Positions 1-42,674 are shown, counted from the first letter of the stretch. The stretch: 64,000 nt of DNA from a bacterium (GCA_018435605.1 JAHDNF010000002.1:324538-388537); one strand, 5' to 3'. Translations and numbers: made by a program. The notes: generated by a model from the sequence alone, not told the origin.

Positions 1-3000
1 GATTCCACATCTTTAAATGTAATGGGTGCGTTCTGATAATATACATTATCGGCCGTACCTATATCTTCTTCGTGATACCCGCGTTCCCAGTCGCGGTATT
101 CGTGTTCAAACACCGCTTGAAGAACACGTTTGGCCTTAGCCTGTTCGAACGGCTCCATTTCAGCGACATACATTAATGTACTGAGATTCATATAAAAGGT
201 GCTTCTTGTACGTCCTGCGTGAGCCAAAGCTTCACCGCTATGGAAAACCCCATCCCAATCTAGTAACATGGTAAGAGAAAAGTCTGTTAATTTGTCAATA
301 TACGCCGACGAACGAAGCACGTCTAATCCCAGAATCAACGCATTACGAATACGTTCTTTGGCGACAGGCTCGGATAATTCACGGGTTAACCGCTGTTGTG
401 CCGCATCGGGAAGTTCGTCAAAAAGCATCTGAAGGTTTTTAGCCATTTGTTGAGGCGAACCTTCGAACAGCGGATTGACAATATCCTCGGCTATAGAGCG
501 TTGAAGGTCTTTGAGCTCCAAACGTACAGCCTTGCCTGCCTCTATGTTCTGCCTGATGATCTCATTGACATTGACAACATATTTACGTTTAAGATCGGTA
601 TCCGCCTCATCAATTCCCAGATCGAAATCCAAGTCCATATCCGGTTTAGATTTGACATCGATATCTCTGCCCGCCGGCAACGGTTCGTCCATACCGAATC
701 CCAGATCGAAATCCAAGTCCACGTCCTCAGCTTGTGTCTGAATTTGCGACAGCCGGACGCTGATAGGTACAACCGGCTCATCCAGCTCGAAAAATATTGC
801 TTTATCCGCAAACCGCCCGTATACCGCCATATCATTTTCAGAATTTAAATACCGGTCAAATAATTCACCGGTAAAAATGTCGTATAGACTTATTGTATCT
901 GACCGCTTAGAAAAACTTTCGGCAAGTGTCCGTATATTGATTCCGAATGTATCGTTGCTTATCAACGCCATATAATGCAATACCAGATCAGCCTGTTGAG
1001 GATACATCTGCAATACATCCCTCAAAACAGACGTAGATTGGATCAACGAATCATGGTCGAATATCCCTTCCGGCATTAAACTCTGGGCAATGATGTTGTT
1101 CACAGCTTCGGACAAACCGGCAAACGATTTCGTATCAATTTGTGCGCTTAAACTCATCACCTCTGTAACTACAGGGCCTCTGAACATAAACGGCACACTT
1201 TGTACAACCTCAGGCAAAGAATAAGTGGTAACCGATTTGAAAAGCCGGTTGAAATCGGCCAAACTCAAGGCAATATCCTCTCCGAGTTCTATACTTATCT
1301 TTTTAGAAGTTGCGGCTGTCAATTGTTCGAGTGCGGCATATTGAGCCGCGCCATCCTTTATGGCGCTAAGGAAGTTTACTATTGCGTCAATATGATTAGC
1401 GCCGATATCAGGATCAAGCGTCCGTTCGTCAATGAAAATGCGCGCAAGACCGGATGCTATATCGCTTAGTGATTGTCTTTCGTTTTCCGACAGTAGCGAC
1501 TGGCGGTATCTATTGGCAAGAAGTTCGTATATAGGCTTGAATCCCATGGCGGCAATGTGTGGAGGCACACCTACTTTCCGGCGAAACAGTTGAGAAAATC
1601 GGTCGAAAGTCATGTTGGTCTGCGCCAATATCGCATCCATAACAGCTTCACGGGCTTCGACCCCATGGGCATTGAAGAAAAGATTTATGAGATCGCCAAA
1701 CAGGTTTAAAGCGTCAGTGGTATCGCTGGTTATCAGCTTTGCAATTTGTTTTATCTCCTGATCCAATCCATCAGGTAGCTGACTTACGACGTTATCCGAT
1801 ATCCTGTCGTTAACCCGTGCAGGATCACCCACTATATTAAGTGTGTCTAAAAGATACATAGTCCCCTGCTGGCCGGTCAAAATGTTTCCGTCGGAATCCT
1901 GAACAGATACCACAAATTGATGCTGTTGGGCTCCTACAGAGAATCCTCCGAATCTCCTTAGCAATTCAAAATCGTTACCGTCGGCATCGGCAGAGTCACC
2001 TATTTTAAGTAATCGCTGGACATCAAGTTTCAATAAATCCGCTACTGTGGTTAGAACAGCGCCCTTATTGGTAAGAGACAATTCGACTTTATTGCCGGAA
2101 TGACGTCTTACCGCTACATTGTTAGCGCTAAGATAGTTTTTAAGTTCCGGTTTTTGATCGAGAAGAGTTTTAAAGTCATCAATATTCCTATTTAAGAATA
2201 ACGAATAGCGGGCGGCAGACAATTCTTCCTGTTGAATTCCGAATTCACCCAGCAGATCGCCGGCAATTTTTTCTTTCATATTGTGCGCCAGCCTCAAATT
2301 CAACGCGCTCGTTTCGATCATTTTTTCTTTATCGGTCGACGCATAACCGTAAGCCCCGTTTTCGACAAACACGTATAAATTAGGATGTTCGATACCGCGA
2401 ATATCCGGATCGATTTGATTTTGCGTACGGCCGGTAAGGATAACTACCGGAACACCCGACTCTACAAGCCGGCTGATACGCTCTTTCATTTCCGCAGAAA
2501 GCATTTGTCCTTCACCAACCAAAGTGCCGTCAAAATCTAACACCACCGCATTGTACATAGAATCGCGCACATGCTGTTTATAACGATTTATCACTGCGTC
2601 GAACACATCTGAGCCGACTGCCGATCTGATCTGATCAAGATTATAATCCGTAGCGTCAAGCAAATTACCGCTGAGCATATTATCGATCATCAATAAGAAT
2701 GCGTTGTACGGCTGATCCTGTTCATTTTTCAACGTATAGCGTTGTGCTATATCCAGAGGTATTCCCCGCAAAAGTTTGTTTATATTACTTATATATTCCT
2801 GTTGCGCAGGCGGTATCCGGTCTGCCGAGACGCTAAATACGGCTTGTAGTTCAGCCTGAGTCATAAGCCTATTATCGACCGCTATTGACTTGATCAATTC
2901 GTCCGGTGTTTTTACAGCAGGTTCGACTCTGACAACCGCAGAATTGGCGCGTTCCTTGGCGTCACGTATAGCCAACAATTGGCTTAGATAAGCGTCAAGC

Positions 3001-6000
3001 TGGCTTGCGCCGCTATAATCCGCAAGATTGGTAGTTCTGTCGCCTTCTTCATACAACACTCTGCCTGCACGGTACAACACACGTCCATTTTCTGTTCGGA
3101 TGTACTCTTCGAGTTTACCCATTACTTCTATTTCAGTGGCGTCATCTATCCGATCCTGTTTGAACGCCCATTCTTCACCGGCGGCAAACCGCGAAGTATT
3201 ATAGAGATACGAGTATACATCGATATCAGGATGGTCTACTGCCATCATTCCCATAAACAGCAGATTCGCAAGCCCTTTATGTCCGATATCTACAAACCGT
3301 ATAGAGGATACTCCTTCATTTACTCCGGAATACTCGTATATGATCGGTGCTATCAACTCCTGCGCGGCGAGAATATTTTCTCTGATATTAGAGATCAGTT
3401 CGAGAGGCGTCACCTTTTCAGGTTGGGATGTAATAGGGTTGACTATGGTTTCGCTCCGCAAAAACGATTTTTGCGCCTGTAATTGGGCGAGCGCAGTTTC
3501 AGGGGATTGTGCTGTGGCAATGGTTTTGTACATTTCCATGAAGCGCCGTGCCATTTCTTTACCTTCAACAGCATAGTCTGCTTCCATATCCGATTCGTTC
3601 ACACCCTGTTCGCGCGCCATGGTTCGCTGGATTTCATGGTATATCATAGTTACAACTGTTCGTATTTGAGGCACGTGTTCTTCGAGAAATGTCCTTCCGG
3701 CTGGAAGCAGATAACCATCCACATCGCCGCGCAACGCACGCTGATACAAATAAAATATGTCGCCGTCGCGGGTGAGGTATACCGGAGTAACATTTTCGCC
3801 CGGGGTGTTATAAAGCATGGATTCGATAAAGTCTCCAACCCGTTTAGCAGACTGCTCATAAGAATCAAATTTTGAGAATCCTTCTTTGAAACGATCTATA
3901 AAACCGGCATGATCAGGATAGAATTGTTTTGCTTTGTCACTTCGCAATCGTACAAGCTCTTTGACTTCGGCTTCGGTAAATGTTTCTATGCCGTCCATGG
4001 AATTGAGAAGCATATCTATTTCATGACGTATTACTGCCTGATCCATAACGCGGTCTTCCGATTTCGAAACGCCGAAAACAGCGAACGCCAGCCCAGCCAA
4101 CGGAATATTTTTACCATTATTTTGTTTAGATACACGAATAGTCTCCAGATCGGCAAGCAACTGTGAACGGCTGATATCAGGCATGAAATGCTGTACCGTT
4201 TCAATAACCGCTTGAATTTGCTTTTGCGGATAACCCAGAGGAACAAGATACGCCATTATATCCTGTACTATATCAGCCTGTTGATCGGGCAAGGCGCCGA
4301 GTTCCAAACCATCTTTGAGTTGAAAAGCGTCCAACTGATCTGAAGAAACCTGTTTTTCCGGCTGTATAGCCGACGAAGATTTGTCGCCGAATACAGCCGA
4401 TACGATATCGGCATGACGTCCTCCGGCAAACTGTATGATTTCACTGTACATCTGTTGCACAACAGCCTTATCGAAAAGCGTTATTACAGTTTCGCCGTCA
4501 AGCGTATATGTACTTCCGGAATCGACAAAGTTTTTCAAGTTCTGCATAGATTCCCGCACAACTTCCGGATTCCGGTTTTCTCGAATATTTTCTATCCATA
4601 TTCCTATCTGCCTCATTATATTGAGATTGTCCTGTTGAGCCTGCTTCAAAGAATCCGGAATATACCTGTTAAGCGGTATGACACTATCATTAAGAAGTGC
4701 GGAAAGGCGTTCATTCAATAAATCGGAATAATTACGCGGGGTTTGGGCTATTTGTTCAAGTCGAGTGCCGGCGGAAACTTGTGAGTCATGAAGCAACTCG
4801 TCATGCAACAGCCCCATTTGATAAGGATGTATACGCGATTGCCCGAAAATATCTGCGACCGCAACAACGCGCGCAGTAACAATGGCATCCATTACAGCTT
4901 CTTTATATTGCGCAGTAAGATTCTCAATCCTCAGCGCCGGAAAATATTCTCTAAGAAACTGTGTCAAAATCTGCGCGTTTTCGCCGGTTATGGGAATATC
5001 TCCCTTGAGCATCTGATATATGCTGTTATCATGCCGAATTTGCGCGGCTAGTTCGGAACCGGTTAGATGTTCGGTTCGGCTGATGGCATAACGCAGGCTA
5101 CCGACTTCCCTCAGTGACAGCAATTCAGACCAGTACCGGTCAATATGTTTTCGATAAACTGCAAGAACCGCGCCGTCAGCGGCGGAAACAGCTCCGTCAA
5201 GAATGTTTGTGCCCTGCGATTTTGCAAACCCTACGGCCTGCAAATAAGCCGCCATACGCGCTACTGTATTTGAGCGTTCGGCGTCATTAAGCGCAATCCC
5301 TTTCATAACAGCGTCGATAAAATCGAGCATTTCATTGGCATGATGTTCGTTATGATATGTAAGTATATCCCTTTTGCCGGATGGGTCTGTAATTTGTTCG
5401 ATGGCAAACAATCGAACCATTTCTAAGCGGGAATTTTCAGGATACGACTTCAGCGCAATGCCGGCAGAGGTTAAATCAGAGCCGGTTCTTTGCGCAACGA
5501 TATTTTCTACTCTACGTTGTTCCTGACGCAGATAAACATCTTCCATTGCGCCTTTACCGAACACATCTTCGAGGCTTTTAGAAAAAAACACTATCGCATT
5601 ATCGAAGGATGTGTTTGTCAACATCTGTTCAAGAGATGATCTAGCAATACTACGGATTTCAGCGTCACGGTTGGTCTGAGTGATTTGAACTAACCGCCTG
5701 ACGACTCTTTCTTTTTGCTGTTCTGTCAATGCGGATGCATAGCGTGAACTGAGTTGACCTAGCAGAAAAACATCCGTCCGGTTCAGTTCAATTTCCGGCG
5801 ACATCAAGTAATCAAAGCGCCGTGAAATTTTGTTTTTCGGACTATCCATTATATGTTTTGCGACCATGGTATCCCAGAAAGACAATTCTATAGGTTTGAA
5901 AGATTCTATAACCTTCTGAGACGCAACGAACGGCTCGGCGGCTGTAGCTACAGCCAGTTTTTTATTGACCTCTCCATTGTTAAGTATTTGGTGTAATTTA

Positions 6001-9000
6001 ACACTACTTTTTGCAACGTCAGCGGCGCTGTCGGCACGTCCCTGAATAACAGAAATATCCCGCGCTCTAAATTGCGGTTCAATGGTAGAGAAGTCGAGTT
6101 CGATCATACCTGTGCTGACTACAGGACGGGAAGTAACCATTACAGCCGGTTTGCCGTCTTTTTCAGTCAAGCGGTCTCGAAACTGTTCATACTGTTCGGA
6201 GTTGACTTTCATGATAGGGCCGTGTATGAAAAATCGCGCGGCGTATTCCGGTTCGAGTCCCAAGGAAATTTCAAGAGGTTGCGCTCCTTCGACGGGAATG
6301 ACTATTGTTTCCCTATCCCTGATGGCTTTTACCGATATGGCTGTCCGTGGGGGCGCGCGTGGGTTGACGGATGTCAAAATAACGTCGCCGGTAACTTCGT
6401 CTCTGCTGATAACAAAATCTATTACATCTTCGCCGGCCACAAAGGAAATATCCAGAGCGCCTTCCGCATCTGGGCTTGAGGGTAGTTTGCTACGATCGAT
6501 TTTAACGGAATCCTGTTGCAATTCATAGGGAACGTGGATATCCGGATATTTCACCAGATACACTCCGTCAGCCCGTTCAACCGCAACAGCGGAATTGCCG
6601 GCGGTTTCTTGAACGAACCCATCTTGCTCGCGTAACCGGTCATACTCGGATTGAGACATCATGCGAAAACCGGGCGCTTTACTGCGCAACATAGCAACAT
6701 CGGCATCGGATAACCGCAACGCACGGTCGCCCATATCGTTAAAAAACCGTTCCACAGCGGCTTGAAGTCCTGCGATATTTTCTGTTTCTGATATGATACG
6801 CAAAGACTCGTCAATCAGCTTATCTCCTATCGCCATACCCCATTCAAAATTGGTTGCGCCGACATTGTTTCCGTCAAACCGGTAAATAGTGAGTTTTTTT
6901 GTTTTAGAATTCCACTCTGCCTTTGCGTATTCGTCGCCGCCTACGCGGAATGTGCGCAAGACATCTTCGTCAGGCTGTGTTTGCAAGATATAATTTACCA
7001 GCCGTTTGAAATTTTCGTTGCCCTCGAAAATATATTCTGCCTGAATATTCGGTGACTCATACCGCACAAAGGTCTCGACAATTCGATCATTGAGCTCCGC
7101 CAGTAGCCACGGTTTCTGTGCTTTTTCAATGGCGTCCAGATAATTGTCGGTCAGGCTTTCTATGCTGGTATAGCTTGTATACCGAGGCGCAATGGGAAGA
7201 TGAAATATCTGGTATTCGTTTTTAAGTCCGATATTGAGGTTTTCCAGTATTTGGCTTTCTGCTTTTTCAGAATAGGTCATGATACCGCTACGCATTACTT
7301 TGCCGGCATCCTGTACTACCTGTTTGAACATATCTACCAGATCGCGGTCGGTAAGTTTGTCTTTACCGGACAAGGCCAGAGCGCGAGTTGTCTCGTATAA
7401 AGAGCTGAATTGCATCTGCTGATGTTTGGCAAGTATGAACGCCTGATTATACAGCTGATCGGTAGACTCGGCCGCTCTATGTATACGCGCTTCGTCTACG
7501 ATACCTTTTTCGCCTCGCAGTACATCGGTGATTCCTCCATACATATGTATATTGGCAGGCAAAAATCCTTCGTTCATTGCGGAAGCTATAGCGCCGTAGC
7601 GTTCATTGCCGAGCAAATCATGCAAGGCGTTTTTAGATTCATCAACTACCCGTTCTTTAAACGACGAATCCGGACTTTCTATAGCAGAGCGCAAGAACCC
7701 CGACACATCGACGTTGCCCACATTAGTAAACGTAACAAAATATTCCGCTCCCGCGTTTCCTATATCTACTGTAATTCCGTAAGGCGAAAGCATTTCATTT
7801 AAACTCTGACGCAAGACATTGCTTATCACCTCAATTCCTACATCGCCGAGCATATGACCTACCCCGAGTTCGGAACCGAATGTATTGAAAACCCCTTTAA
7901 AATTTTGAACTTTAAGATAAGCCAGCTGGACATCTCTGCCCTCGGATATTTTTTTGATGGTATCTTCTTTATGAGCACGAACATTCTGGGCGTATTTCGA
8001 TGTTCTAGAACCGTTGACAACATTACTGACAAACGAGAACCGCCACAATTGGTCGCTTCGAATCATATCGGAATTGACGGCCGCTCTGGGTAACGCCTGC
8101 ATTTCCTGCTGTAACTCCACGGGATATGTAGACTTGCCTTCGAATTCACCGCGATTTGCTATTAGATCAATAAGAGAGCTTCGTATATACCCCGCGTCGC
8201 GTATATCGTTTTGTATAACATAATTTAAAATGGTAGCAAGGTTCGTGTACCCATCACCGAGTTGAGTAATGACATTCAGAGCCGCCGCCTGACGGTTTTT
8301 GCCTGCCTGCGGGTCAGGATTTTTTGCCCATATATCGATAAATGACTGAACTTGATTTTCCAATATAAACAGTTCCTGAACCGCCGGATTGATAGGAGTA
8401 ATTTTAGGATTGATGCTTATGCCTCGCAAACGCTGGCGGAGCATGCCCTGCTCGACTTCGATGCGCAGTACGTCGTCGTTTAGCATACCTTCCGTAAACA
8501 GGTTAATATCGACCACTACGGTATTGGGCTGGGCGGTCACTTTGTGGCGCATCTGCACACCGTCTACAAATTCAAAAAAAGCATTTTTGTATTCCTGCTC
8601 CGTAACCTTGTGAACCTGCTCGAGTTCCTGAGATATACGCTGAAGCCGCGAACGTATATCGTCCCTGCGGTCAAAATCGTAACCGTATTCTGCGCTGAAA
8701 ACTATATTGCCGGAAATCCGTCCCCGGCCTACTATAGGTCTGCCGAGAATAGGAATGACCATATTCATTCGCGCGTTGATCGCTTCTTTGAAATCGGAGT
8801 CTGTAAAAATCGTGGACACAACGTTGCGAACAATTTCGCGTATATCCGGATTAACGGTTTTGTTATATGCAAGAGCAAGCAAATATACGCCTTTACTCTT
8901 TTGTTCTGCCGACAGCAGATGAGGGTAGGAAGTCAATATTTCACCGAGCATATATATATCGGTTGTATTGAGTAAATCGTCTTGCGCCAGCAACAGCGCC

Positions 9001-12000
9001 GCACGCCGTGCCATTTTGTCCTGATAGCTTTCAAGAATATAATCGGCGATCATAGAATCCCACGAAGAGAACTCTATATCCTGAAATGACACCATTCCCT
9101 GTGCTGAAGCGACAAAAGGACTACCGGCATGCAAATACGCCAGTTGCGCGTTAACTTGTCCGTCGTTCAATATTTGATAGTGTTTGACAGCTTCTTTCGC
9201 ATGATCAGCCGCTGTGTCGGCGCGCCCCTGTATTACAGATATGTCTTTATTGCGAAACTGATCGTCAACTCCTGATAAATCCAGATCTATATACCCTGTG
9301 CTGACAACAGGACGCGATGTAACCATCACCGCCTGTTTGCCGTCTTTCTCGGTTAGGCGGTCGCGAAGGCGGTCGAACTCCTGTTCGTTGACAGTCATAA
9401 TATCACCGTGAATAAAGAAACGTGTAGCATACTCATGTTCAAGGGTAAGGGAGATGGTGATAGGTGTTTTTCCTTCGACAGGAATGGTAATAGTTGCTCC
9501 TTGTCGAATCTGTTCTCCGGTTATGCCGGTTGCAGGAGGAGCTCTAGGATTTTTGGATGTTAAAATAACACCGCCGGTCGCATCGTCACGGATTATGACA
9601 AAATCGACCGCCTCGTCGCCTGCCCTGAGAGTTACCGGCATGGCAGACGCATCTTCCGAGTCAAGGGGTAACGTACTGCTGTCAACCTTGACTTGATCCT
9701 TCTGTATAACGTACGGAACATGGATATCCGGATACTTCACCAGATCGAAATTCAAGCCCCGTTCAACCACAACAACACTGTTATTGGCAGTATCGCTGAC
9801 AAAAGTACCCGCTTTTACCAAGGCGCGATATTCGGATTCGTTCATCAAACGGAAATTGGGAGCTTTGCGTTGTAGTGTCTGCATTTCCTCTTCGGTAAGT
9901 GTTAACGCCCGGTCGCCCATATTGTTGAAAAAGTCTGTTACCGCAGACTGGAGTTTGCTGACATCTTTTATTTCGGAAATGATACGCAAAGATTCATCTA
10001 TGAGTTTGTCACCTATTCGCATACCCCATTCGAAGTTCGTTGCGCCGACATTGTTGCCGTCAAAACGATAAATAGACATCTTTTGAGTCGCCGCAGACCA
10101 TACAACTTTGCTGTACTCATCGCCTCCTACCCTGAATGTGCGGTCAATATCAAAAGCGGGCGATTCCCTCAGAATATAATTTATTACACGCTTGAAATTT
10201 TCATTGCCCTCATAGATAACGTCGGAAACGAGATTGGGCGAATCGTATCTTAGCATAGTTTCCAATACACGGTCGTTGAGTTCCCGCAGTGTCAGCTCAT
10301 TCGCGCCTTGGTCTACTGCGTCGCGGTAATTCTTTACCAGCTGGTCAATGCTGGTGTAACTGTGAAAACGAGGGGCGATGGGTAGTTGGAATATTTGATA
10401 TTCGTTGGACAACCCGAGTTTCAGGTTTTCCTGTATATCCTGATATGTTTTCAAAGAATACACAGTCAAGCCACTTTTCAGGACTTTAGCGGAATCCTGA
10501 ACCACGGTCTTAAAAAGGTTAACCAGTTCATTTTCGCTGACAACGTCTCTTTGCATTTTCGCTTGATCGCGGACAGTCGCGTATAGATCGCTAAACTGCA
10601 TCTGTTGATGTTTGGCTAAAGCGAACGACTGGCTGTATAACTCATCGGTAAGCTCTGCCGCACGCCGAGTCCAATCCGCGGTACTAACCCCGGTAAAACC
10701 GGTTTTACCGGGTAACACTGCGGTAAGACCGCCGTACATGTTTACCCGTTCAGCCATAAATTTAGAGTCAATATCCTGTTCGATACCGGCGTATTGTTCG
10801 GCTCCGATAATACTTTTGAGAGCGTCTTTGGTTTCCTGAACGACCATTCGCTTGAATTCCGATTGAGGGTCTTCGAGTATATTGCGAAGTACCGACTCAA
10901 TATCGGTTACGCCGACATTGGAAAACGTGAGAAAATATTCAGCTCCTGCATTGCCGATATCAACGGTAACGCCATAAGAAGCCAATTGTTTTTCCAGTTC
11001 TTTTTTCAATACTTTGCTGACAACAAAAATGCCTGCGTCGCCTAATGTATGTCCAACGCCAAGCTGTGCTCCCAGAGTATTGAAAACATCTTTGAAATTC
11101 TGTATTTTCAGATATGCCATCTGCACGTCGCGACCATCTAATATACGATCGATAGTGGTTTCCTTATGAGCCCGCACATTCAAAGCATATTTGGATGTTC
11201 TAGAGCGACTTACAAAATCGCCGATTTGAGTGTACTGAAGGAGATTGGCAAGACGCTGAGTCTCCTGAGGAATAATATCCAGAGCTGTCGAATAACCGTA
11301 ATACGACAAATGTTTGCGAACAAGTTCGGGGTATGTTGTATTTTCCTGTAATTTCGGAGACACTATCCGGTCTATTAAGGTATCCCTGATTGAAGAGGCA
11401 GATGAAATTTCGTTATCAAGAACACTGCGCAATAAAGCAGGAAGACCCTCATATATACCGCCTAATTTTTCCAGCGAAGCAATAACATCTTTCTGTTTAG
11501 CGGCTCCAACGGAAGAATCGGCATGAATATTGGCGATATCAATAAACGATTGCACATATCGTTCTAAGATAAACATCTCGCGCAATCCGTGGTCGATATC
11601 GGCTACTTCAGGTTGCATGGACAACTTATCCAATTGCATGCGTATAAGACCCGATTCAATTTCCATCATCAGGAGTTCTTGATTAAAAACCGAGTCTTCA
11701 AACAAATTTATATCGAGTACCAGCGAATTGGTAGCGGATTGAACACGCTGAGCAATCGTCGGGTTTTTCACCAATTCGAATTGAACCGAGTTATAGACAG
11801 ATTCGGTGGTTTTATTTCTCAGTTCGAGTTGTTCACCAATCTTTAAGAGCATTTCTCGGATACGATAGCTTTCTTGTGAGTTTATGTTACTTTCCGCATT
11901 AAAGAATAGTCCTATTCCGGCTGACCCACGCGCAACAACCGGATTGCCTATAATCCTTGTCAACTGAGACGGACGTGTGGATACTAGAGCGGCAAACTCA

Positions 12001-15000
12001 GGATGTTCTACGATATCGGTCAACGCGCGGCTGATGAGCTGGCGGGTTTGATAACTCACGTCCGGCACCCATGCGTCCATGAGGCGGTTAATTACTGCCA
12101 GTTTGGTTTCATCATCCATTCGGCTATGAAAATTTAAGGAATATTCGCGTAGCATTGAAATGTCCGTAGGATTCAAAGGAATATCAGGATTAAGCAGATA
12201 ATTGAGGCGGTATTTGAATTTCTCAGACGGATTTTCAAGCAGAAATTGCGCTATCATGGTATCCCACGATGAGAAAACAGTTTCTTTGAAAGACACAAGT
12301 TCTTCAGCCGTGCCTATAAACAAATCCGCGGCATGACGAACGGCAAGGGCTGTATTTACCTGTCCATCGTAGAGTATTTGAAATGTCTTCACCGATTCTT
12401 TGGCTATATCCGCGGCTGAATCGGCTCGTCCCTGTATAGAGGCTATATCTCTATTAAGATACTGCGGAGCGATTTTAGATACATCTATCTCTATATATCC
12501 CGTGCTTACCACCGGACGGGAAGTTACCATTAAAGCGGGTTTGCCGTCTTTTTCGATCAGGTTGTCGCGGCGTACTTCGTAAGCCTGCTCGTTGATGAGC
12601 ATGATATCGCCGTATAAGATAAATTTAGGGCCGTATTCCTGCTCCATGTTGATCGTAATGGAAAGCGGCTTGCGTCCCTGAATAGGTATGAATATTTCAG
12701 CGCCGTTTTGTATTTGTTCCAGAGAAATGACGGTTGACGGAGGAGCCCTAGGGTTGACGGAGGTCAGAATAACCCCACCTGTAACTTCGTCGCGCACCAT
12801 CGTAAAATCGACTACATCGTCCTCAGCGCGCAGGGTAATCTGCATAGCGCCTTCAGCGTCCGGCGATAAAGGCAATTTACTGCTGTCAAAATGCAGGTTA
12901 TCTTTTTGCAGAATGTAAGGCACGTGAATATCTGGGAACTTAACAAGATAAAACCCGTCTTCTTTTTCTACCGCTACAGCCGATTTATCGGCAACGAGTT
13001 GAGAATAAGCGTCCGTGCCTCTTATCATTTGATAATCGATCTGTGAAATTATATGAAAATTGGGCGCTTTGCGTTGTAGCATTACCAGATCTTCATCGCT
13101 CAGCTTCAAAGCACGGCTACCCATATCATTGAAAAAACTCGCTATATTGTCTTGAAGTTTGGCTATGTCTTCCGTTTCCGATATGATACGCAGAGATTCG
13201 TCAATCAGCTTATCGCCGATAGCCATACCCCATTCAAAGTTAGTAGCGCCAACATTGTTGCCGTCAAAACGGTATATGTTCAGTTTTTTTGTTACGGCGT
13301 TCCATGTCACTTTGCTGTATTCGTCGCCACCGACGCGAAAAGTAAGATTCACATCATTTTCGGGCTGGGTCTTTAGAATATAATTAATTACCCGTTTGAA
13401 ATGTTCGTTGCCTTCCCAAATATCTTCGGTAGTTATATTAGGGGATTGATACCTAAGCATAGTTTCAAGCAGACGGCCGCGCAATTCCTGTGTATGCCCG
13501 TACAGATACCCTTTTTCAATCGCATAAAGGTACTGTTCGGATAAAGCGTTGATAGACCTATGGTGCTCATATCCCGGAGCAATTGGCAGATGAAATATCT
13601 GGTATTCGTTTTTCATTCCCAGTTGACTGTTTTCATTAATTTCCTGCATAGCCTTGTTAGAATAGGGCAAGATAGCGCTTTCCATTACCTTAGCCGCATC
13701 CTGTACAACCGGTTTGAACATATCCGCCAGTTGCACCTCAGTGGCATTAGAAACGGCCATACGCAAACGCGCCCTCACAGATTCATACTGTTGAGAGAAT
13801 TTCAATTGCTGATGTTTTGCAAGCTGGAACGCCTGACTGTAAAGCATGTCGGTTTTCTGCGCCGCGCTTTCTATCAATTCGGTCTCTGTCAGCGCGGATT
13901 CAGACGTCACGCCGCGCACAATTTCGGTCAGGCTTCCGTACATATGTATATTAGCCGGCAAAAACCCCGTGTTTAGAGCGCTTTCTATTGCCGAGTACGC
14001 CTGTGGGGACATCATCTCGCGCAGAGCCTGTTTGGTTTCTCTGACAACTTCTTTGCGGAAATCGGAAGATGGATTTACAATCATATCGTTGAGGACAGAG
14101 GTTATATCCACGGTTCCAACATTTGAGAAAGTGACAAAATATTCCGCGCCGGCGTTTCCTATTTCCACCTCTATGCCGTATGGGGACAAACGTTGTTCAA
14201 GAGCTTCTTTAAGTACTTTGCTTATAACCATAATACCCACATCGCCCAGCAAATGCCCGATACCCAATTCCGACCCGAAAGTATTGAATACTCCTTTAAA
14301 GTTCTGTACCTTCAAATATGCCAACCGCACATCTTTACCATCAAGTATGCGGCTGATGGTCTGCTCTTTATGGGCTCTGACGTTACTTGCGTATTTGGAA
14401 GTTCGGGACTGGCCGACCATATTCCTAAGCAAATTAAAATCCATCAGATTTTTCATATGCTCAAGATTATATTGAACATCCATGGGAGTCATAGATGCCA
14501 GCTCATTTTGAACTTCTACGGAATAATTGGATAAACCTGAGAATTGACCTTGATTAGTTATCATCTCGATCAACAAAGGCTGTACGGCGGTTTCGTACTG
14601 GATATTGTTATCGATAACATGGCGCAGTATCTTAGCGATAGCGGTATATTGGTCGCCCAAAGTCTTTTCCATAAGATCAACTACAGCCTGCTGGCGTGTT
14701 CTGCCTTCTTCAATTGAGGCGGAATGAGAAACTATGTCGATAAACGACCTTACATACTGCGTTAACGAGAACAATTCTATAGCCGCTGGGGACAACGGCA
14801 TCATTGTATCGGTAGCGCTCAACTGTTTTAAAGTCGACCTAACGACAGCCTGTTCAACCTCAAGGTCAAGCAAATCGGGATTGGCTTCCTTGAATAATGA
14901 AAAATCCAACAACACCGATCCGGCTTCCATAGACGACTTCTGAAAATTCGTCGGACGATCAGCAAGAGAAAACTTCAGGGCGCGGTACTGTTGTTCCGAT

Positions 15001-18000
15001 ACCTTCTGAAGCGATTCAAGACGTTCTCCGACAGAAAGAAGGGTATCGCGAATGGCAGTGCGCTGACGCAAAGTGGTATTGCTGTCGTTGCTGAAAATAA
15101 GTCCGGAATCCACTGTACCACGGGCAAAAATAAATCCTTTGAATATCTTTACGTCTTTTTGTGTCTGGGTATCATTGAGTTTTTCCCATTTTTCCATATC
15201 GGCGAAAGGAGCGTAATTTTCGTCTTTGGATAGTTTAGCAGTCAGACTGCTCAATGCGCGGGTTATTTCTTTGCCGCGCTGTACCTTGTCAGGAAACCGC
15301 TCTGTAATAAAGTCGATATACTTCTGCTTGAACTCTTCAGTTATCCACAGGTAAGGCAACCTCAGGCCGGTTTTATCACTCCGATCTTCAATAATCCGGT
15401 AGACTTCCTGAGTCAACACGCTAAAATCCGATGTCACATGATCTTTTTCCATTTGACGGATTTTATCGACTACAGCATCTACCGTTTCAGGCGAAACAAG
15501 TTCGAGAATCAAAAGAATCATAGGCAACTGATATCGAATTTTCGGATTATTCGGCGTGTAATACTTGAACAACTGATTTTTTACCCACATATGCTGTATA
15601 ACATCTATTCCGAAAAGTGTGTCGATATTTTTATAAAGAGTTTCACGCTCTGCTTCGGTAAGTGTAGTTTCCGATTCCAACCGAGCTACTATAGCCATCA
15701 GCGGGGCATAAACTGCATACGCTTCCGCGGAGTTAACATTCTGGTTAACAGGGCTATCGTACTGATCATCGAGGAAATGACCTAGTTCGTGTTTTTTATG
15801 CAACTGCTCCATCAATGCCGCAAGGTCTTTATCAGACACATCAGCGATGTGTTTTTCTATAACTGCTACGATTTCGTTGGTGGCACGATTTTTCTCCAAG
15901 GTTTTCTTGATACTGTCGATACTTCGTTCCAAAGATTCGCCGGTTTCCATATAAATAATATGAGCGCCGTTGGGATATCCGGGTATGGGGTACACCTCGC
16001 CGCGCAGTATATACTGAGCAGGCGCAATGGGCGCAAATGGATCTTTTACCCTGTCGCCTCGGAATATCAGTACGGTTTCTTTACGTCCTTCTATATCGAC
16101 CACATGTTCTTCCACAGCGTCATTGTAAAAATCGACAATACCTATTCCGTTAAATACGAATCCTGTATGGAAAAACAAATCGGCGTTGATGCGGGTACGA
16201 AAATTTTTGAGTAGTAAAGCGCCTTCAAGTCGGTCATCCAGATTCTCGCTGGAGGACAAAGTTTTAATCTGTTCCACATTTAGGGCATATTCACGTAAAT
16301 GTCCGGCGGCATTGGCAAACCCCCGTGACTCTATCAGACGTGCAAAGCGTTCCAACTGATCACGCATATCTTGAGTTACTTCTTCTGTAGTATTTATGGA
16401 ATTGATCAGTTTTGCCAGATCAAAAGCGAATTGCACCCGTTCTTCTGAAGAAAACACGTCGATTACCGGCAATTCTCCTTCCTGTTGCAGATGCAATCCT
16501 GAAGTATATTCGTTTAACACGCCCTGCAAATCCGATAATTGTCTTAGCGTGACGCCGGACTCTAAAAACACCGGTTCAGCGGTTTTCTTTCTTATTTGCG
16601 TGATAACGCTCTTATCTATAATTGCCCATTCCACAGTAGTGCCGAGAATGTTTTTACCTCTGACAATTCCATACCCCTGAGCGAGCAGTTCATTTATGCG
16701 CTGTTCGGATAAACGTTCGACCTCGCCGTTGCGCTCGGCCTCATATATTTTCACTTGCGGATTTATTACCACTTCGTAAATCGTCGGCGTACCTTCAGCC
16801 ATGTTGGCATATCGTTGAGCCTTGTCGAGATTTTCCTGTCCGAGTGTATAAAAACCGCCGTAATTTCTGCCTTTTTTACCCTGTTTGGTTTGACCTTCTC
16901 TGCCTAATACTTGCACATCAGTCATCTGCATGTTGGGGTTAGGCGAACCGTGAAGCAATACCAGTCCGTCCTGCCGTTGTTTTGCCGATTCCTCGCTTAC
17001 TATCTTGTTGATTTGTTGCTGGGCGATTTGAATGAAATCGAGACCGGCGACCGGATCGGCCTTCAATATGCCCGCAAGCAAGATATCAAATGAATATGCA
17101 TCGCTATAAACTGCCCGAGCCTTCTCATCCATATACGAAGGTATGTTTTTCTCGAACATCTGGTGCATAAACATAATCATTTCCAACGGCGTCTCAAGAC
17201 GGGAGGTTACCCCCATGTCGGCTATTGTTGCCGAGTAAGTTCCGTCTTCTTTTTGTGTGATAAAAAAGTTTTCCGGTTTGGAGTCAGACATATACCACTG
17301 AAAACCAACGTTTTGCGCCTGTTCGAACAATGTTTTTACGACCGACTGCACCACAGCGCGTATACGTTCTTTATAGGCCTGTTCGGATTCGCCTTCGCGC
17401 ATAAACAGTAACCCGCCGGATGCTTTGCCGTATTCCAGTTGCAATAACTGCGTACCTTCAAGCAGTTGTTCGGTATAGTAATGATATCCGCCGCGGCCTT
17501 GATCGTACAACGCCCCTACCGCAGGAACAACCCCTTCACTTCCGGTCACAGGCGAGGAAAGAATAATTTTCGCGACCTCTTCGTCAAACCGAGTATGAGG
17601 CATTTTTGGTTCTTTAAGAACAAAGGAATATGGTTTTTCGTGACTATCAATTGTAACGGTAATTTTATGTACATTCTTAAAATGACCGCTACCGACATAC
17701 CTGATGTCAATACCGGTTATATCCGCCGCGTTAATACCGGTCAAACCATGAAGAACGAAAAGCATTTCAAAGATAACATTCGTGTCTTGCAGAAACTTTT
17801 TCATCTCGCGTACTTTTGCAGGACCGTGATTTTCGCCCATATCGTAAAATGGGCCGTACTGGTCGGTATATTCGGCTCCTGAGGTAATCTTCCAATTCAT
17901 CTGAGCGGATTTATCTACAGTTCCGGCTACAAAAGCATCAAGCCTTTTAGTAAGGGATTCAAGATGAACTCGTGCTCGTTCGCGCAATACATCGTTTTCC

Positions 18001-21000
18001 GAATTGACAGCCCACCACAGCAGTTCCTTTCTGATTGCGCGAAAATCATCGGCGTCATTGAAACGAGCCTCTGCAAGCGCATCCATGAGCGATTGTGTAT
18101 TTTCTATGGAAATTCCGGTTAAAGGTTTATCTTTTAGAAGATCGAGAGTAGATACAAGCGATATAATTTGAATTTTGGCTAAGCCGAGTAGCTGTTCAAG
18201 CCGTTCTTGAGCGAGGGGCACAGCCGAAATTTTATCGATAAAAAGCTCCAACCTCTTGTCAACAGGAGCTTCCATATTGGCGATATGATGATATTCCTGC
18301 TCCAGCTGTATAGCTTCCTGCTGATTAGCACGCATGTACTCGCGAAGCGATTCAACCACTCTGGCACGGGTTAATCCCAAACCGCTTACAGGCACATCAG
18401 TCCATCGGGCGGTTGACGGCAATCCTGCCAACTCCATAGCTTTTTTCTGCCACAACATCATTTCGAGGGCTTCATGGCGCGCCATGTTTGCATCGTAGGC
18501 GTATTCGGCAATGTAAATTGCGTTACGGCGTAGTCCGGCATGGGCTTTCTGTGATCCGTACAGGCTGGCTAGCCCTTTAACCACGTATACTTCTATTGTC
18601 TGCCCGTGTACCAAAATATCGTCTTTGCGCTCGAGACGCTCATCAAATATTGCTTCACGGATGACGGCATTGACTGCGGCATGTGTCGCGGCGTCAGTGC
18701 CGATATCGGCGATATTTATATCGTTTAAGTATGCTTTAAGGGTTTCATAAACGGACACAAGGTCGGCAACAGTCCATTGCAAGGAACCTATGGATATCGC
18801 GGTTGCTGAATCAGGCCGTCCGCTGAGGAAATTAAGATATGTTTCGAGCGAACGGAAAGCATCCTGAATAAAGGCGACAGTTTGCGGTGAGGCTACTCCT
18901 AAAATAGCAGAGATAAGTTTATCGAAAGATACTGTACTGTCGAATGAATCCAACGATTCCTGATCGTGGGCGATTCGATTTCTAATTCCGTCCACAAGCA
19001 AAGCTTGTAAAACCAGTAACGCCTCGAACGGCTGTCCGAGCGTTTGAGGTAAAGAAAGCGTGTCTACGTATGCGCGGAAAGAATCGTCGTTAACGACTGA
19101 TTTAATTATATCAGCGTAATCGGCCTGTACAGAAGCAAGGTCAAACCGGTTGCGTTCCAGTTGGTCGATCAGGGTCATTGCCGCTCTAACAACGGTTTCT
19201 CCCATGCGTTTAGCATACGCAGTAGACGACTCAACAGCGGATTTTGTCAATAGTTGTACAGAGGCGGCCGCGGAACCAGACTGACCGGCAAGATATATGT
19301 CAATTCGCTCTAACGCGGTCTGAACCTGCCGGCGGCTCCATTGCCCGCTAGTTAATTCCGTTCCGATCAATATGGCGTCAGGGTTGGTATTGCCCTGTTC
19401 CAATACGTTTTTCAATTCACTGCGAACCGACTCTATAAACTGTAACGCGCCTTGCGGGTCGGCCTTCGCAATTCCGCTCAACAAAACGTCTACGGAATAT
19501 GTTTCATTGAAAATAGTGTTCATCTGTTCTGAAGAAGCTACCTGATGAGTCGCCAGTCTTCTAAAAAAAGTGTCCAGAAACAGCAGGATATCGGTTTTGC
19601 GCGTGAGCGTTCGCGACTGTCCGAAATCGACAATTGTCGCCTCGTATGAACCGTCCTGATTTCTATGCAAAAAGATATTATCCGGATTGGTGTCGTTATA
19701 GATATTTGAAAAACCGGAATTGGCGGCTTGTTTGTATATAGCTTGTGATACTGCGGATATCATATTTTCAAGTCTGCTACGGTATTGAGTAGCTGATTCT
19801 CCTTCCCGCATGAAAATCTCGCCTTCTTTTTCAAACGTATGGCGTGATGCAACTTTACTGCCGGGCACCAGCGATTCAGTATAATACCTGTCGCTGGCAT
19901 ACAAATCATCCGCCGGCGTGCTGACTCCGGGAGTTCCGGGAGGGTAGAGGTTTCCGAAAACAGGAACAACTCCGCCGGTTCCGTCAAGATTGGAAACCAG
20001 CATTATATCGCGAGCTTCCCGTTCGAACATCGCATAAGATTTTTTTGACTCGTTGAGGGCAAACCGGTACGGACTGTTGTGGCCTTTTATATTGATTGTA
20101 ATGCTGTGTACATATTTGAAATTGCCCGTACCGAGATAGCCGATTTCGATCGAGGTAATATCCGCCGGATTGATATCGGTCAATCCGTGAATGACAAACA
20201 ACATTTCTTTAACAACATCGCTCTGTTGCAGAAATCGTGATATTTCGCGAATTTTTTCGGGTCCGTGGTTTTGTCCCATATCGTAAAACGGGCCGTATTG
20301 ATCGTAGTATTCATTTGAGGCTTTTATTACCCAATTGGCACGCGCTTGAGCGTCTGACGGGTCGGATAAAGATTTCCTAAGGACATTTTGCAGGTCTGCC
20401 ATATATAGTTCTGCCTGCGAACGAACGGGAGAATCGTCTTTGGCGTACACGCTCCACCAAACCATTTCACGGCGGATAGCCCTGAATTCTTCAGCATTGG
20501 CATACTGCTGGTTGCGTAATTGCCCCAGCAGATCTAGTACCTGCCGAATACCCTGATCGTCAAGCCCGGTTTGCTTCATAAGATTAAGTTGATCGAGAAT
20601 TGAAGCGATCGCAGGACTAAGAGTAAAAGCCTGCCGGCCTTCTGCCGCCTGCTGTACCGACTGTACCCTGTTATCGTTTACAAGTTCACTTGTAGCGGTA
20701 ACCTGCCCTACAAGAAGCGCCTGTTCGTGAAACTCCTGCTCCATTTGCCGCGCCAGATCGGGATTGTCTTTGATCCATGCGCGAAGCTGGTTGGCAATAC
20801 TGCCGCGTTGACCACCGAATATACCGCCTGACAAGGAATTCCAATCCATGCCTGAAGACAGCCCGGCAATCACAAGCGCCTGCTGTTGCCACAATCTAAG
20901 TTCAACGGCCTCATGCATTACAAGCTGTTCGCTGTATGCCCCTTCGGCAATATAAATCGCATTATTGCGTATTCCGGCATGCGCTTTTTGGTCGCCGTAC

Positions 21001-24000
21001 AACACGTCAACGCCTTTGATTACGTATACAGATATTTGCTGTCCGTCTACGGTAACATCAGGTTTACGCTCGACTGCATTATTGCGGTATGCGTCTCGAA
21101 TTGCCGCGTTGACAGCCGCGTGGGAAGCGGCATTTACTCCGATATCCGCTATATTCACATCGTCAAAAGCTTTTTCCAGCTTCGACTTGAAATCGCGCAA
21201 CTGTCCCATGGATATTCCGGTTTCACCTATTAAAACTCCGAGGTCACTGTCAGGTTTGGCGCTATTTTGATCGAGAAAAACCGTCAAATCAGTCAACGCC
21301 TGGCGTACAAAATCTATGCCGTTGCGTGAAGCGTTAGATATGAGTAGCTGAAGGAATGCATCGAGGGTCACCTCATTTCCTGCAAGGTCAAACGAAGTTT
21401 TATCGCCCTGTATCATATTACTCAGCGCTGTTTGTATACTGATAAACGACAGAAGAATATCGAAAGCTCTACCGGTACGTACAGCACCGCCTATATCTTC
21501 TATCAAGGCTCTAAACGAATCGCGGCCTGATACCTCCAAAAAGACGTCTATTAAATTTAGCGACCCGATCATATATTGAAAATTGTTAGATTCGGCAAAT
21601 GAGAAAACGGCATTTACAAGCGCTGTTGTCATTGCCTGTACACGGCTAAGATACTGATCTTCGGTTTCTTCAGCGTCTTTGATAAACGGAGACCGTTGTA
21701 TAATTCCCACTTGAGGCACGACTTCTTGGGTTAATGCATGATATCCTTTGTCGAGAACGTATTTCTCGGCGTACATCTGAAAACCGCCGGTAAGCGCGGA
21801 ATCCATTGAATATGCGTTAACAAACTGGGCCACAGGTGATACCGCCGTAACGCCCGTTGCAAGGCGCATACGCGCCTGTTGCCCGATGCTCGTTTGAGGA
21901 TTTTCTACTCCTTTGATAACAAAACTGTATTCTTTACCTGCAACGACAGCCGTTACTTTATACGCCATCCGGCCTGTCGGCGCAAAAAGCTGTTCGACCG
22001 TAAAACCAGATACGGATTCTGGTTCGATATTTCTCAGTCCGTGTAATACGAACAATGCATCCGATAAAACGCTCGTTTTTTCGAGCATATTCCGTACAAT
22101 AGACTGCCGGTTAGCATCAATATTTCCTATGAATTCTATCTTGCCAGATACGTCCGGCATAGACAGCGAACCGGATGTCAGAGATTTATTCAACAAATCC
22201 ATCAGGCTGGTAGCCAAATTTGCCAATTCGGTGTTACGCGACGCCACAGCCCAATATGCCAATTCACTGCGTATCGCGATAAAATCAGAGGCTGTACGGT
22301 AATCTTGAGAAAGCAATGCATTGAGATGTCCTTTAAGCGCGTCAATCTCCGAGCCTGCGAGTTCTTTTCCTTTATATGAAGCCAAGACATTGAGCGCAGT
22401 TTGTATCTGTTCTGCGGAAGAAACCGTAGGTTGAGACTGCCGAGGTTGAGCAGGTGTATAGGCAGGCACTGCGTCCTGTCCTGCAACCATAATAATGCCG
22501 TTGAATTCTATTGTACCGTTTTGATGAATACGCGACACACTGCCGTCCGAGTGAACCGCAACCAATACCTGAGGGCTTTCGAACCGGACAGTAGCAATAT
22601 CGACCAGTCCTATGAGCTCTCGATCGAGTTGCTTGCTGAATACGGTGACACGAGTGCCGTCATGTTTATGTATGAAGAAAAAATCATTTTCCTCAACACG
22701 GTTACCGTCGCGCATATCAATTATGTCCTGCGTACGCGAAACGCTCGGCGCGGAAGGTTCGTTAAATTCGGTATATCCTGAAGCGGCGTCGAGTATTTGC
22801 TCTTTTTGAGCCTGTTCGCGCAACTGGCGTAACTGTTCGGCGACCTGTATTTGTTTTTCAAGCAGTTCCGGTGTTGCTTCGAGAAGCGATACTGCAAGAG
22901 TAGTTCCTTTTCCCAGTACATTGAACAAATCCAGCGAATACGCCTGCATATCAACGATAACCGGTTTGGTCAAATCTGCAGGCGGATTTAGGAAAAATGA
23001 AAACCAGAATTGCTGTGGCACTCCGTTTTCTATGGTTATAGTAGTTATCCCGTTGCGATCTATAAAATTGCGCACTGCCGCGGGCAATATGCTACGGTCT
23101 TGGGCAACCTGCCATTCATAACGCGACTGAGATGTTTGCTCATGCAACCGGGCGATCAAACGTGCCGGCGGAGCGATTTCAAACCGTTGGTTATCGGACA
23201 TAGTAACAAGTCCAAAAGTAATCATACGGTTGACCAACGACCCGGGATTCAAAGAAGCCAAATCGTTGACAGATATATTCAGTCCGGCCAGCCGGTCGAG
23301 TATTTGTTGTTCGGATGCGAGCAGTTGTGCTCGAGGTTGCTGTAACCGTTTAATAATCCCTGCAACGGTTGCCTCGTCAATGGAATCGAAATTGCCAAAC
23401 AGCGGCATAAGAGAAGCGATGACATTATCGGTTCTGGCTCGCAATGCAAACATCTTTGCCTGATAGGCCTCGCCATCGACTATATCGATCGGCTTGCCGT
23501 TGATTGTGGCTGTAAGAAGCGGATTTAGATCATCCATTTCTTCCTTGGCGATTTCAAAAAATACAAACGGGGTATCGCCGATCACAAGCGACACATCGAG
23601 ACCTCCGTCGGGAGACTGGGTAATATTGATTCTCGTAAGTTCGTCGAACGAGCCTTTCGCCCATCCTTTGAGAAAAAAATTGTTAACGATATCGGTGAAA
23701 CTTTTTATGGCTTCTTCCGACGAAACTATCTGTCCGTCCATTTTAGCGAATTTCCCGACAGCGTATGCCACCAGCAGGCTTTTCATCTCCACCTTAAAAC
23801 TTTCCGCGCCCTTCTGGTCGATCAAAGGAGGGTTGCCCAAGCGTGACGCTACGGCCAGTGTGCTGGTTTTTTCGAGGATGTTTTCAAGGCGCTTGGCAAA
23901 CGGCGATTTCTGGTTCATCATCATGGAAATATAGGCGCTCTTGTCATCGCTACTGTGAATTACCGGAGCGACAACGTAATAGGAAATACCCTGCGCTTTA

Positions 24001-29299: not shown

Positions 29300-30166
29300 A
29301 TGATATGCCGGCTTACTTTGTTCATAATGGGGCTTACATTTATAGCTTTAGGATGCGCAACCATGTATAACCCGATGATAACCCAGCCTGAATCATGGAT
29401 CTGTTACTACGGTAAAATCCCTCGGGGGGCATCGCTCAAATCCATTGATTTGGCGATTCTCGATCCGGATAACGTGCCTAATGTTCATAAATACACAAGA
29501 GAAGGGACTATGTGTGTAGGCTATGTGAGTATCGGGGAAGCTGAGGATTACCGCTTTTACTGGAAAAAAATAAAAAATGAAGGCTTCATCATAGCTGAAA
29601 ATGCCGACTGGAAAGGAAACTATTACATCGACCCGCGCAACGAACGATGGAAATCTGTGATTATAGACGAGGTCATCCCAAGGGTACTAAACTGCGGATA
29701 CCATGGTATTTTCATGGATACTCTGGATACAGCGGAATACCTTGAGTGGCTGGATCCGGACAAATACGAAGGTTCTATAGACGCAATGGTAGAACTGGTT
29801 CGAGACATACGGCGGCGATACCCGACAATCATTATGATATCAAATAACGGATACCCGCTTCTATCGCGAATTGCACAGTACATAGACGCCGCGCTGGTCG
29901 AAGACTTGTATACCGCATACGATTTCGCAACAGGCGTTTATGGGTTGCAAGATACAAACATCACCAAAGAAAACCGTCAGATTCTGCACGATATTTCCGC
30001 CCGTTACCGTGTACCTATACTTACACTCGACTATGTACATCCAGACGACAGCACCACAAAGCTATCCATAGAACGTAAAAGCAAGGATAACGGTTTTTTT
30101 CCATACATAGCCGATATAAATTTGGAAGTTTTACCGAGGCAAGTTAAACAGGAAGGTAATAGATGA
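29300..30166 (+). CDS. pelA: PelA hydrolase module: secreted GH114-family glycoside hydrolase
   Basis: N-terminal signal peptide. The VGYVSIGE block and TIM-barrel-like composition are typical of GH114 / the PelA hydrolase domain. Sits at the head of the pel locus. The stop overlaps the next start (ATGA). Confidence 0.7.
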   Translation: MICRLTLFIMGLTFIALGCATMYNPMITQPESWICYYGKIPRGASLKSIDLAILDPDNVPNVHKYTREGTMCVGYVSIGEAEDYRFYWKKIKNEGFIIAENADWKGNYYIDPRNERWKSVIIDEVIPRVLNCGYHGIFMDTLDTAEYLEWLDPDKYEGSIDAMVELVRDIRRRYPTIIMISNNGYPLLSRIAQYIDAALVEDLYTAYDFATGVYGLQDTNITKENRQILHDISARYRVPILTLDYVHPDDSTTKLSIERKSKDNGFFPYIADINLEVLPRQVKQEGNR

Positions 30167-35867: not shown

Positions 35868-35907
35868 CAAACCGTTGCTATAGAGATTATTTTAAAAGGA
35901 GGCCTGT

Positions 35908-36465: not shown

Positions 36466-36475
36466 AAGGGTCTAT

Positions 36476-42662: not shown

Positions 42663-42674
42663 CGGAGTTCATAT

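Follow-up and report, generated by a model that had tools for sequence, protein, structure and literature searches.

The DNA analysed here is a stretch of 64,000 nucleotides from a bacterial genome (GCA_018435605.1, JAHDNF010000002.1:324538-388537), called the window throughout, and the subject of this work is a giant gene on its minus strand, whose product carries three tandem units of about 1,065 amino acids (aa). Each unit has a conserved core made of two palm-like domains of the GGDEF superfamily, the first degenerate and the second provided with a GGDE hairpin, and the module is a rare and unannotated variant of this superfamily with an unusual two-domain, re-ordered core. The whole explanation towards which we lean, with restrained confidence, is that an old module containing this pair has been triplicated and that each unit may hold a nucleotide cyclase- or transferase-like centre. 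What it says on evolution and architecture is well supported; what it says on function is inferred from conserved residues and domain context. The main rival is a non-catalytic role, either in nucleotide binding or as a scaffold.

Three tandem units in one giant protein

The minus strand of the window contains a reading frame without stops from 3 to 25490 (8,496 codons). When the translated frame was cut into chunks of 250 residues and compared with itself by BLASTP, matches were found at offsets of 1062-1068 and 2130-2133 aa, with E values down to 1e-88. BLASTN between the units gave offsets of 3186, 3195, 3204 and 6390 nt, with 64-68% identity over stretches of 0.3-1.9 kb plus 86 nt at 74%, and the period of about 3.19 kb that had been noticed in a sequence-only reading of this DNA is thus confirmed. 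A hidden Markov model (HMM) built from the units recovers three full-length copies (aa 3438-4500, 4502-5569 and 5571-6630 of the stop-free frame) and detects neither a fourth nor a partial copy in the giant frame. Together with the alignment of the translated units, this bears out the earlier description of a giant protein with three diverged modules of about 1,060 aa in tandem. The units are arranged head to tail over positions 5592-15179; the array had been placed at 5950-15650 with the strand unstated, so that its presence was right and its limits have had to be corrected. The peptides that had been quoted as conserved in each copy were located in unit 1 (DGKPALMVTSRPVVSTG), unit 3 (DGKPAVMVTSRPVVSTG) and unit 2 (DGKQAVMVTSRPVVSTG and FFIHGDIMTVNEQEFDRLRDRLTEKDGK).

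The units are 46.9-50.9% identical to each other in amino acids and 54-56% identical in nucleotides over the codon alignment, and the blocks most conserved among them are the GGDEF-like core motifs. By codon position the identity is 0.59 (first), 0.69-0.72 (second) and 0.35-0.39 (third), a pattern that indicates divergence under protein-level constraint rather than chance or a recent duplication.

Two minor features lie inside the units. An antisense open reading frame (ORF) with an ATG start, at 13846-14475 (+) and of 209 aa, falls wholly within unit 1 and is presumably spurious. A perfect 24-nt palindrome, CCCGGTAAAACCGGTTTTACCGGG, at 10689-10712, codes for PGKTGFTG, part of a variable loop of low confidence in unit 2. 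The window has no other perfect palindrome of at least 18 nt, the chance expectation being, by our estimate, about 0.004, and this one is missing from all the related loci.

Age and origin of the triplication

A scan of one genome per species gave five loci with the module, and these relatives sit in genomes of Auribacterota and Omnitrophica; the host of the window is a bacterium related to Candidatus Auribacterota and Omnitrophota. One of the loci (L003), on a 958-kb contig of a Candidatus Auribacterota genome, is collinear with the window: its three units follow the same order, and a single frame aligns with the window protein over 7,356 aa at 62% identity. The units cluster by position and not by genome in a distance tree, with orthologous units 69-72% identical and paralogous ones 47-51%. 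Three other relatives (L004, L005 and P0003), of about 3,980 aa, share the N-terminal domain and carry only a single unit, with 40-45% identity to each of the three in the window. Because the units group by position, the triplication predates the split between the window and L003, and because the shorter relatives carry one unit, it is later than the split from them. The triplication is old. Between orthologous units the identity by codon position is 0.73-0.80, 0.86 and 0.46, with all three units equally constrained, which indicates that all three copies are under purifying selection.

It could be argued that the three copies are an assembly artefact, or separate genes fused by sequencing error, and a second collinear relative (L001, ENA contig_62, 11.3 kb) is indeed a metagenome contig broken by frameshifts. 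However, those frameshifts occur in an otherwise collinear contig and fit long-read errors, copies with about 55% nucleotide identity cannot be confused by assemblers, and no stop interrupts the giant frame. Besides, three corresponding units follow each other identically ordered and in one frame in the independent genome, which makes a mis-assembled copy number very unlikely. This explanation has a negligible probability and is already effectively refuted. The divergence of the copies, and their equal number and order in an independent genome, are what is found in a tandem duplication, and the view that the array is biology rather than an assembly duplication has held up. In L001 the giant gene is split into six called genes (frames 2, 3, 1, 2, 3 and 1), probably by long-read indel error, and this contig illustrates how such giant genes get fragmented in protein databases.

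The module family and its conserved core

The units have no usable match in Pfam, NCBIfam or PADLOC, and a profile of five full units has no match among PDB sequences. A word-indexed search of 5.8 billion proteins gave two relatives only, so that an exhaustive HMM search was needed to find the others; carried out on 1.84 billion cluster representatives, it gave 42 clusters of the family. Most of the full-length homologues are proteins of 1,000-7,700 aa, and each homologue has one copy of the module, with the exception of P0001, which is a fragment of the three-unit orthologue. Conservation across the family covers profile positions 270-700 and a second stretch at about 850-990. The conserved core, of about 450 aa, consists, by sequence comparison, of two palm-like domains of the GGDEF superfamily and a helical linker of about 110 residues.

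AlphaFold gave for the whole of unit 2 a model with a mean predicted local distance difference test score (pLDDT) of 72 and a predicted template modelling score (pTM) of 0.65, and for the core, using 23 homologues, a model with a pLDDT of 92.1 and a pTM of 0.89. According to the whole-unit model each unit is complex and helix-rich, without the shape of a rod. The idea of very large globular modules is not sustained, as each unit is multi-domain, with about seven segments in the AlphaFold models. The module function had been given as unknown; this can now be amended in that the nature of the core is recognised, and its sequence suggests an activity, which is considered below.

The first palm domain: a degenerate GGDEF relative

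Among the 23 homologous cores, 8 match Pfam GGDEF weakly (best E value 4.6e-7). The family profile compared with PDB sequences finds the GGDEF chains 3icl and 6zxm at E values of 0.003-0.012, and the alignment spans the N-terminal NR helix, FKxxN and GHxxGD, up to the hairpin. With hhalign the first domain aligns with a GGDEF consensus at a P value of 2.1e-8; Pfam validated this consensus at an E value of 7e-74. In the core model of unit 2 the order of secondary-structure elements is beta-alpha-alpha-beta-beta-alpha-beta-alpha, and the domain keeps the canonical order, with beta-1/alpha-1 followed by the hairpin. Both metal ligands are gone, since the DxD motif has become KxQ and GGDEF has become GAEYF. 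For the window copies, what the sequences point to is homology to GGDEF at the level of the superfamily and not membership of PF00990. Compared with each other by hhalign, the first and second domains align weakly (P 0.025), and a recent internal duplication of one palm domain is therefore not shown.

The second palm domain: a GGDE hairpin and re-ordered elements

In the second domain the hairpin motif FRVGGDEY is kept, and a segment of the form YRFDGNNVGATNFEWGMxIGDKLID begins 14 residues past it. Across 23 family members, whose overall identity to unit 2 is only 17-57%, three residues never vary: the D and E of GGDE and the D of RFD. In three homologues (P0017, P0018 and P0022) Pfam GGDEF matches weakly on the RFD segment, at profile positions 27-73. 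hhalign pairs the RFD strand and the following helix with DxDxFKxxNDxxGHxxGD, so that Asp, Asn and Gly-Asp fall on metal-binding and base-contact positions; the RFD Asp corresponds to the first D of the metal-binding DxD, and the Asn/Asp at the base-contact positions are largely kept.

In the native order hhalign aligns one segment at a time, with P values from 2e-5 to 7e-5. An artificial swap of the two segments lets both align (P 2.2e-8) and raises the score from 29.7 to 47.6; a control with the reversed consensus gives a P value of about 0.2. The values for the three window units alone are weaker and go in the same direction. Pfam was applied to composites of 65 residues, re-ordered or native, and the swap brought a gain of 4-7 bits. 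The GGDEF E values were 3.7e-6 re-ordered vs 6.9e-4 native for P0013 and 6e-4 vs 0.011 for P0012, and the composite of unit 2 reached 0.037 re-ordered, with no match in the native order. The re-ordered composite of P0013, at 27.3 bits, is the only one of these artificial composites to exceed the PF00990 gathering score (23.8). We conclude that, as far as its sequence tells, the second domain is related to GGDEF and has its elements re-ordered in a permutation-like manner, with the hairpin ahead of the strand-helix element.

The second family-wide stretch, MVTSRPVVSTG...IQGRAD, has no significant similarity to GGDEF by hhalign. It was considered as a completion of the second palm across a beta-rich insert, which is not supported: aligned alone it gives P values of 0.05-0.15, and adding it to the re-ordered composite produced no rise in score (45.9 vs 44.3).

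Cysteine content and probable location of the protein

The ATG start of the giant gene is preceded, 9 nt upstream, by an AGGAG Shine-Dalgarno sequence. At its 3' end the frame is cut by the left edge of the window, so that the C-terminus lies outside; as the frame of the L003 orthologue stays open for about 400 codons past the point that matches the window edge, the protein must exceed about 8,900 aa. Hydropathy analysis gives three segments over the threshold, and the N-terminal one is the strongest and the sole one in that position. It has the look of a Sec signal, with a K/R-rich start, a hydrophobic core and VSA|DD at the junction, and L004 and L005 start with a segment of this kind.

Counted from the ATG, the protein has 3 Cys in 8,463 residues (positions 95, 201 and 330 of the stop-free frame), with its last 8,166 residues free of them, against 174 in the 10,966 residues of the 24 neighbouring ORFs (1.59%). 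The share of Cys in most of the homologous giants is 0-0.4% (for example 0/6,336, 0/6,562 and 0/5,164), and a few distant homologues reach 0.5-0.9%. Such a near-lack of cysteine is typical of exported proteins, and in combination with the signal-like N-terminus it suggests that the giant protein is exported. Cysteine scarcity is unmentioned in two studies of giant proteins (bioRxiv 10.1101/2023.11.21.568195 and 10.64898/2026.06.07.730766), according to which 94% of the Omnitrophota giant proteins have a signal peptide or transmembrane helices. The near-absence of cysteine across the module family is a simple marker that bears on where these giants function.

Possible function of the modules

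From the conserved residues, each unit would work as a pseudo-dimer within one chain, in which one nucleotide-binding half-site is catalytic and the other degenerate, by a logic analogous to that of Cas10 and of the heterodimeric cyclases, and it would make or transfer a nucleotide-derived product. There would then be three catalytic centres working in parallel, and the units may differ in regulation or partners through the divergent flanks at their N- and C-terminal ends. Related to this, domains of nucleotide signalling stand beside the module in homologous proteins: cyclic nucleoside monophosphate-binding (P0012), HD (P0011) and Macro (P0025) domains, and further a histidine-kinase ATPase (P0013) and a weakly matched cyclic-nucleotide phosphodiesterase (P0022). 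These adjoining domains fit with a role in nucleotide signalling.

Several observations weigh against this explanation. None of the three window units has a PF00990 match at E values up to 0.1. Foldseek found nothing at an E value below 0.001, either with the whole-unit model against PDB or with the core model against PDB and BFVD, and its matches to GGDEF, adenylyl cyclase, Cas10 and polymerase structures are weak and mixed with M16 peptidase. The swapped order of elements means that the active-site geometry of the second domain cannot be assumed. The flanks of three relatives do not reveal a conserved neighbourhood that points to a pathway. Finally, an exported location would leave a cyclase without nucleoside triphosphates unless it acted inside another cell; given export, such a substrate would need to originate in a target cell, or else the modules would bind nucleotides rather than make them.

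This last option belongs to the main rival, according to which the modules are non-catalytic pseudoenzymes or scaffolds that bind a ligand or lengthen a surface protein, the triplication tuning reach or valency. It is a doubtful but real possibility. The metal ligands of the first palm domain are clearly lost, no significant structural match to an active cyclase was found by Foldseek, and the protein looks exported and is nearly free of cysteine, as large secreted adhesins are. Besides, degenerate GGDEF domains are well known as receptors, and the PelD encoded in this window is an example of them. Against a non-catalytic role, the invariance of the GGDE D/E and of the RFD D across the 23 members and the largely kept base-contact Asn/Asp form a pattern characteristic of an active site, and complex, helix-rich, multi-domain units are not the rod-like repeats of a spacer.

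A bolder version of the catalytic explanation, which we consider unlikely, is that the modules form an undescribed branch of GGDEF domains or cyclases, in which a circularly re-ordered, catalytically equipped palm and its dead partner would constitute a single-chain asymmetric cyclase, present here in three copies on an exported and almost cysteine-free giant. Such a protein could be an extracellular or injected effector of nucleotide signalling, with a logic like that of secreted cyclase toxins, in a lineage suspected of being host-dependent or predatory.

Comparison with known systems

The pair of domains can be compared with GGDEF proteins such as PleD and WspR (PF00990). The first domain aligns with them over the NR helix, FKxxN, GHxxGD, the hairpin and the final AKxxQ helix, and the second shares the RxGGDE[YF] hairpin, an Asp at the DxD position and Asn/Asp at the base contacts. 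On the other hand, the window copies stay below the Pfam threshold, the first domain has no metal ligands, and the second has its hairpin first. Unlike those proteins, the module has two domains in one chain, joined by the helical linker and without an RxxD inhibitory site, and the pair is embedded in about 1,065 aa with four further regions.

The combination of a degenerate and an equipped palm, which would imply a single asymmetric active site, recalls Cas10 (Csm1/Cmr2) and the heterodimeric class III cyclases (C1/C2). It is an analogy of logic and no evidence of membership: the module lacks a significant sequence or fold match to these proteins, an HD domain, a zinc finger and a CRISPR context, and its hairpin reads GGDE and not GGDD. 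That a Cas10-like CRISPR polymerase, or another cyclase of defence signalling, was recruited into the giant protein is a further explanation to weigh. Two palms in one chain, one degenerate and one with a GGD-type hairpin, agree with this idea, as do Foldseek matches of the whole-unit model to Csm1/Cas10, but these are weak (E 0.08-0.7) and not significant. PADLOC gave only a weak, unrelated methyltransferase match (E 0.003), Pfam found no Cas10 in nine sequences from the window and its homologues that were scanned in full, and the list of families for the 23 cores does not contain Cas10. The window has no cas genes, and neither an HD nuclease nor CARF or a CRISPR context was found in it or in the relatives. 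Such a recruitment is most improbable.

Among the exported giants of Gram-negative bacteria that are poor in cysteine, the RTX adhesins (LapA, SiiE) and the passengers of autotransporters have short immunoglobulin-like or beta-helical repeats and C-terminal or type V secretion signals. The window protein resembles them in avoiding cysteine almost fully over a great length, and differs in that its repeats are large, helix-rich and enzyme-like and its signal is N-terminal.

The giant proteins of Omnitrophota (West-Roberts et al. 2023, bioRxiv 10.1101/2023.11.21.568195; bioRxiv 10.64898/2026.06.07.730766) are comparable in general design, being very long proteins that start with a signal or anchor, combine enzyme-like domains (HAD-IIB in the present case) and have internal domain repeats that persist after the decay of nucleotide-level repetition; relatives of the window protein are found in Auribacterota and Omnitrophota, the latter being the phylum to which these relatives have the closest link. 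The window protein accordingly shows a long single ORF, a signal-like N-terminus, the HAD-IIB domain, two internal repeat families and allied relatives. It differs in that more than 8,900 aa is a modest size for the class, in that it belongs to the fraction that is largely Pfam-negative, and in that its repeated unit is a composite module of about 1,065 aa and not a single Pfam domain. Among the long proteins of Omnitrophota with Pfam matches, 65% contain one or more Pfam domains in repeated form, and in nucleotide sequence the repeats have largely decayed (bioRxiv 10.64898/2026.06.07.730766). The array, which had been taken as unusual, is thus not exceptional in itself, repeated domains being the rule in these giants; the uncommon thing is the module family.

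Should the functional inference hold, it would provide a first clue to the function of some of the Pfam-negative giant proteins of bacteria, a domain family (about 42 clusters, almost always in proteins or fragments of 1,000-7,700 aa) for which an annotation model could be built, and an example of a re-ordered GGDEF-type active site with its degenerate partner in one chain. If the modules are inert, the finding shrinks to an ordinary internal duplication within a giant protein. The array of three copies, long kept with its cores conserved and its flanks divergent, offers a natural experiment in the subfunctionalisation of a large enzyme-like module.

Gene neighbourhood

The neighbours of the giant gene in the window are housekeeping genes and a pelA-G operon. 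This pel-like exopolysaccharide operon is complete, occupies 29300-44057 (+) and opens, on the opposite strand, about 4 kb away from where the giant gene starts. Its members include a GH114 PelA, a TPR PelB, a PelC-like lipoprotein, a TPR/HEAT protein, a GT4 PelF and PelG, and a PelD-like receptor of cyclic di-GMP (c-di-GMP), with a GAF domain and a degenerate GGDEF domain, at 36826-38214 (+).

This vicinity could suggest that the units are ordinary cytoplasmic diguanylate cyclases, for example feeding the Pel operon with c-di-GMP through PelD, and one study reports giant genes of Omnitrophota with GGDEF domains and with PilZ genes downstream (bioRxiv 10.1101/2023.11.21.568195). However, the units fail Pfam GGDEF, and with one half-site dead and the other re-ordered, the synthesis of c-di-GMP by a symmetric homodimer is not expected. 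The alignment shows variable residues in place of a conserved RxxD inhibitory site upstream of GGDE, the relatives are not beside pel genes, and the signal-like N-terminus and the avoidance of cysteine speak against the cytoplasm. For these reasons we regard this explanation as very unlikely.

The pel adjacency was not seen in the relatives of the giant gene. In three of them the flanks hold unrelated genes of housekeeping type (mgtE, enolase, response regulator, MatE, PHP, CBM9, STAS and DUF4921), which indicates that the giant gene stands alone. On its one visible side in the window, no secretion-system or glycoside-hydrolase gene flanks it.

Other parts of the giant protein

The HAD-IIB phosphatase domain is the sole domain confidently recognised in the whole giant protein by the Pfam and NCBIfam scans (Table 1). 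Upstream of the three units there is a second, weaker family of internal repeats, with offsets of about 617, 813 and 1413 aa, identities of 23-56% and E values down to 6e-51; it has no match in the Pfam scan and is present in L003 and L001 too.

Table 1. Coordinates of the features of the giant gene in the window; residues of the units are numbered along the stop-free frame.
Feature	Position	Strand	Residues and remarks
Giant ORF	3..25391	-	8,463 codons; ATG 25389-25391 to window edge, 3' end open
Signal-peptide-like N-terminal segment	25302..25391	-	MFFKLKNRFVMRIIALIALESLLSTSIVSA-DD junction; hydropathy, N-termini of relatives
Second, weaker repeat family	~17241-22475	-	aa 1006-2750; self-comparison
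Unit 1	11988..15179	-	aa 3438-4501, 1,064 aa; 70% identity to L003 unit 1
First palm domain, unit 1	13782..14402	-	LKVQNFK for DxDxFK; GAEYF for GGDEF
Second palm-like domain, unit 1	13122..13454	-	FRVGGDEY 13317-13340, then YRFDGNNVGATNFEWGM 13224-13274
Second family-wide stretch, unit 1	12222-12596	-	
Unit 2	8784..11987	-	aa 4502-5569, 1,068 aa; 68.7% identity to L003 unit 2
First palm domain, unit 2	10578..11198	-	PDB profile match, hhalign, secondary structure
Second palm-like domain, unit 2	9918..10250	-	FRVGGDEY 10113-10136, then YRFDGNNVGATNFEWGM 10020-10070
Second family-wide stretch, unit 2	9018..9392	-	MVTSRPVVSTG...IQGRADxAAxxAK; second matched stretch in most homologues
Unit 3	5592..8783	-	aa 5570-6633, 1,064 aa; 72.5% identity to L003 unit 3
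First palm domain, unit 3	7392..8003	-	hhalign; GGDEF-like, degenerate
Second palm-like domain, unit 3	6732..7064	-	FRVGGDEY 6927-6950, then YRFDGNNVGATNFEWGM 6834-6884
Second family-wide stretch, unit 3	5832-6206	-	
HAD-IIB (Cof-type) phosphatase domain	1923-2546	-	aa 7649-7856; Pfam Hydrolase_3 E 3e-13; TIGR01484 above cutoff

By BLAST, the window protein has no counterpart of the C-terminal region that follows the single unit in the relatives of about 3,980 aa (P0002, L002 and L004), which ends in a P-loop-like motif, FIVGISGRPDCDKIS, that appears uridine-kinase-like by eye. At the other end, the N-terminal domain of the giant protein is 25-30% identical across the relatives. It contains the motif HI[KQ]DAHCxY[DE]AQ (aa 92-97, window positions ~25200-25215 on the minus strand), which is conserved in L004 and L005 and holds one of the three cysteines of the protein; it could be a catalytic or metal-binding site of this unannotated domain.

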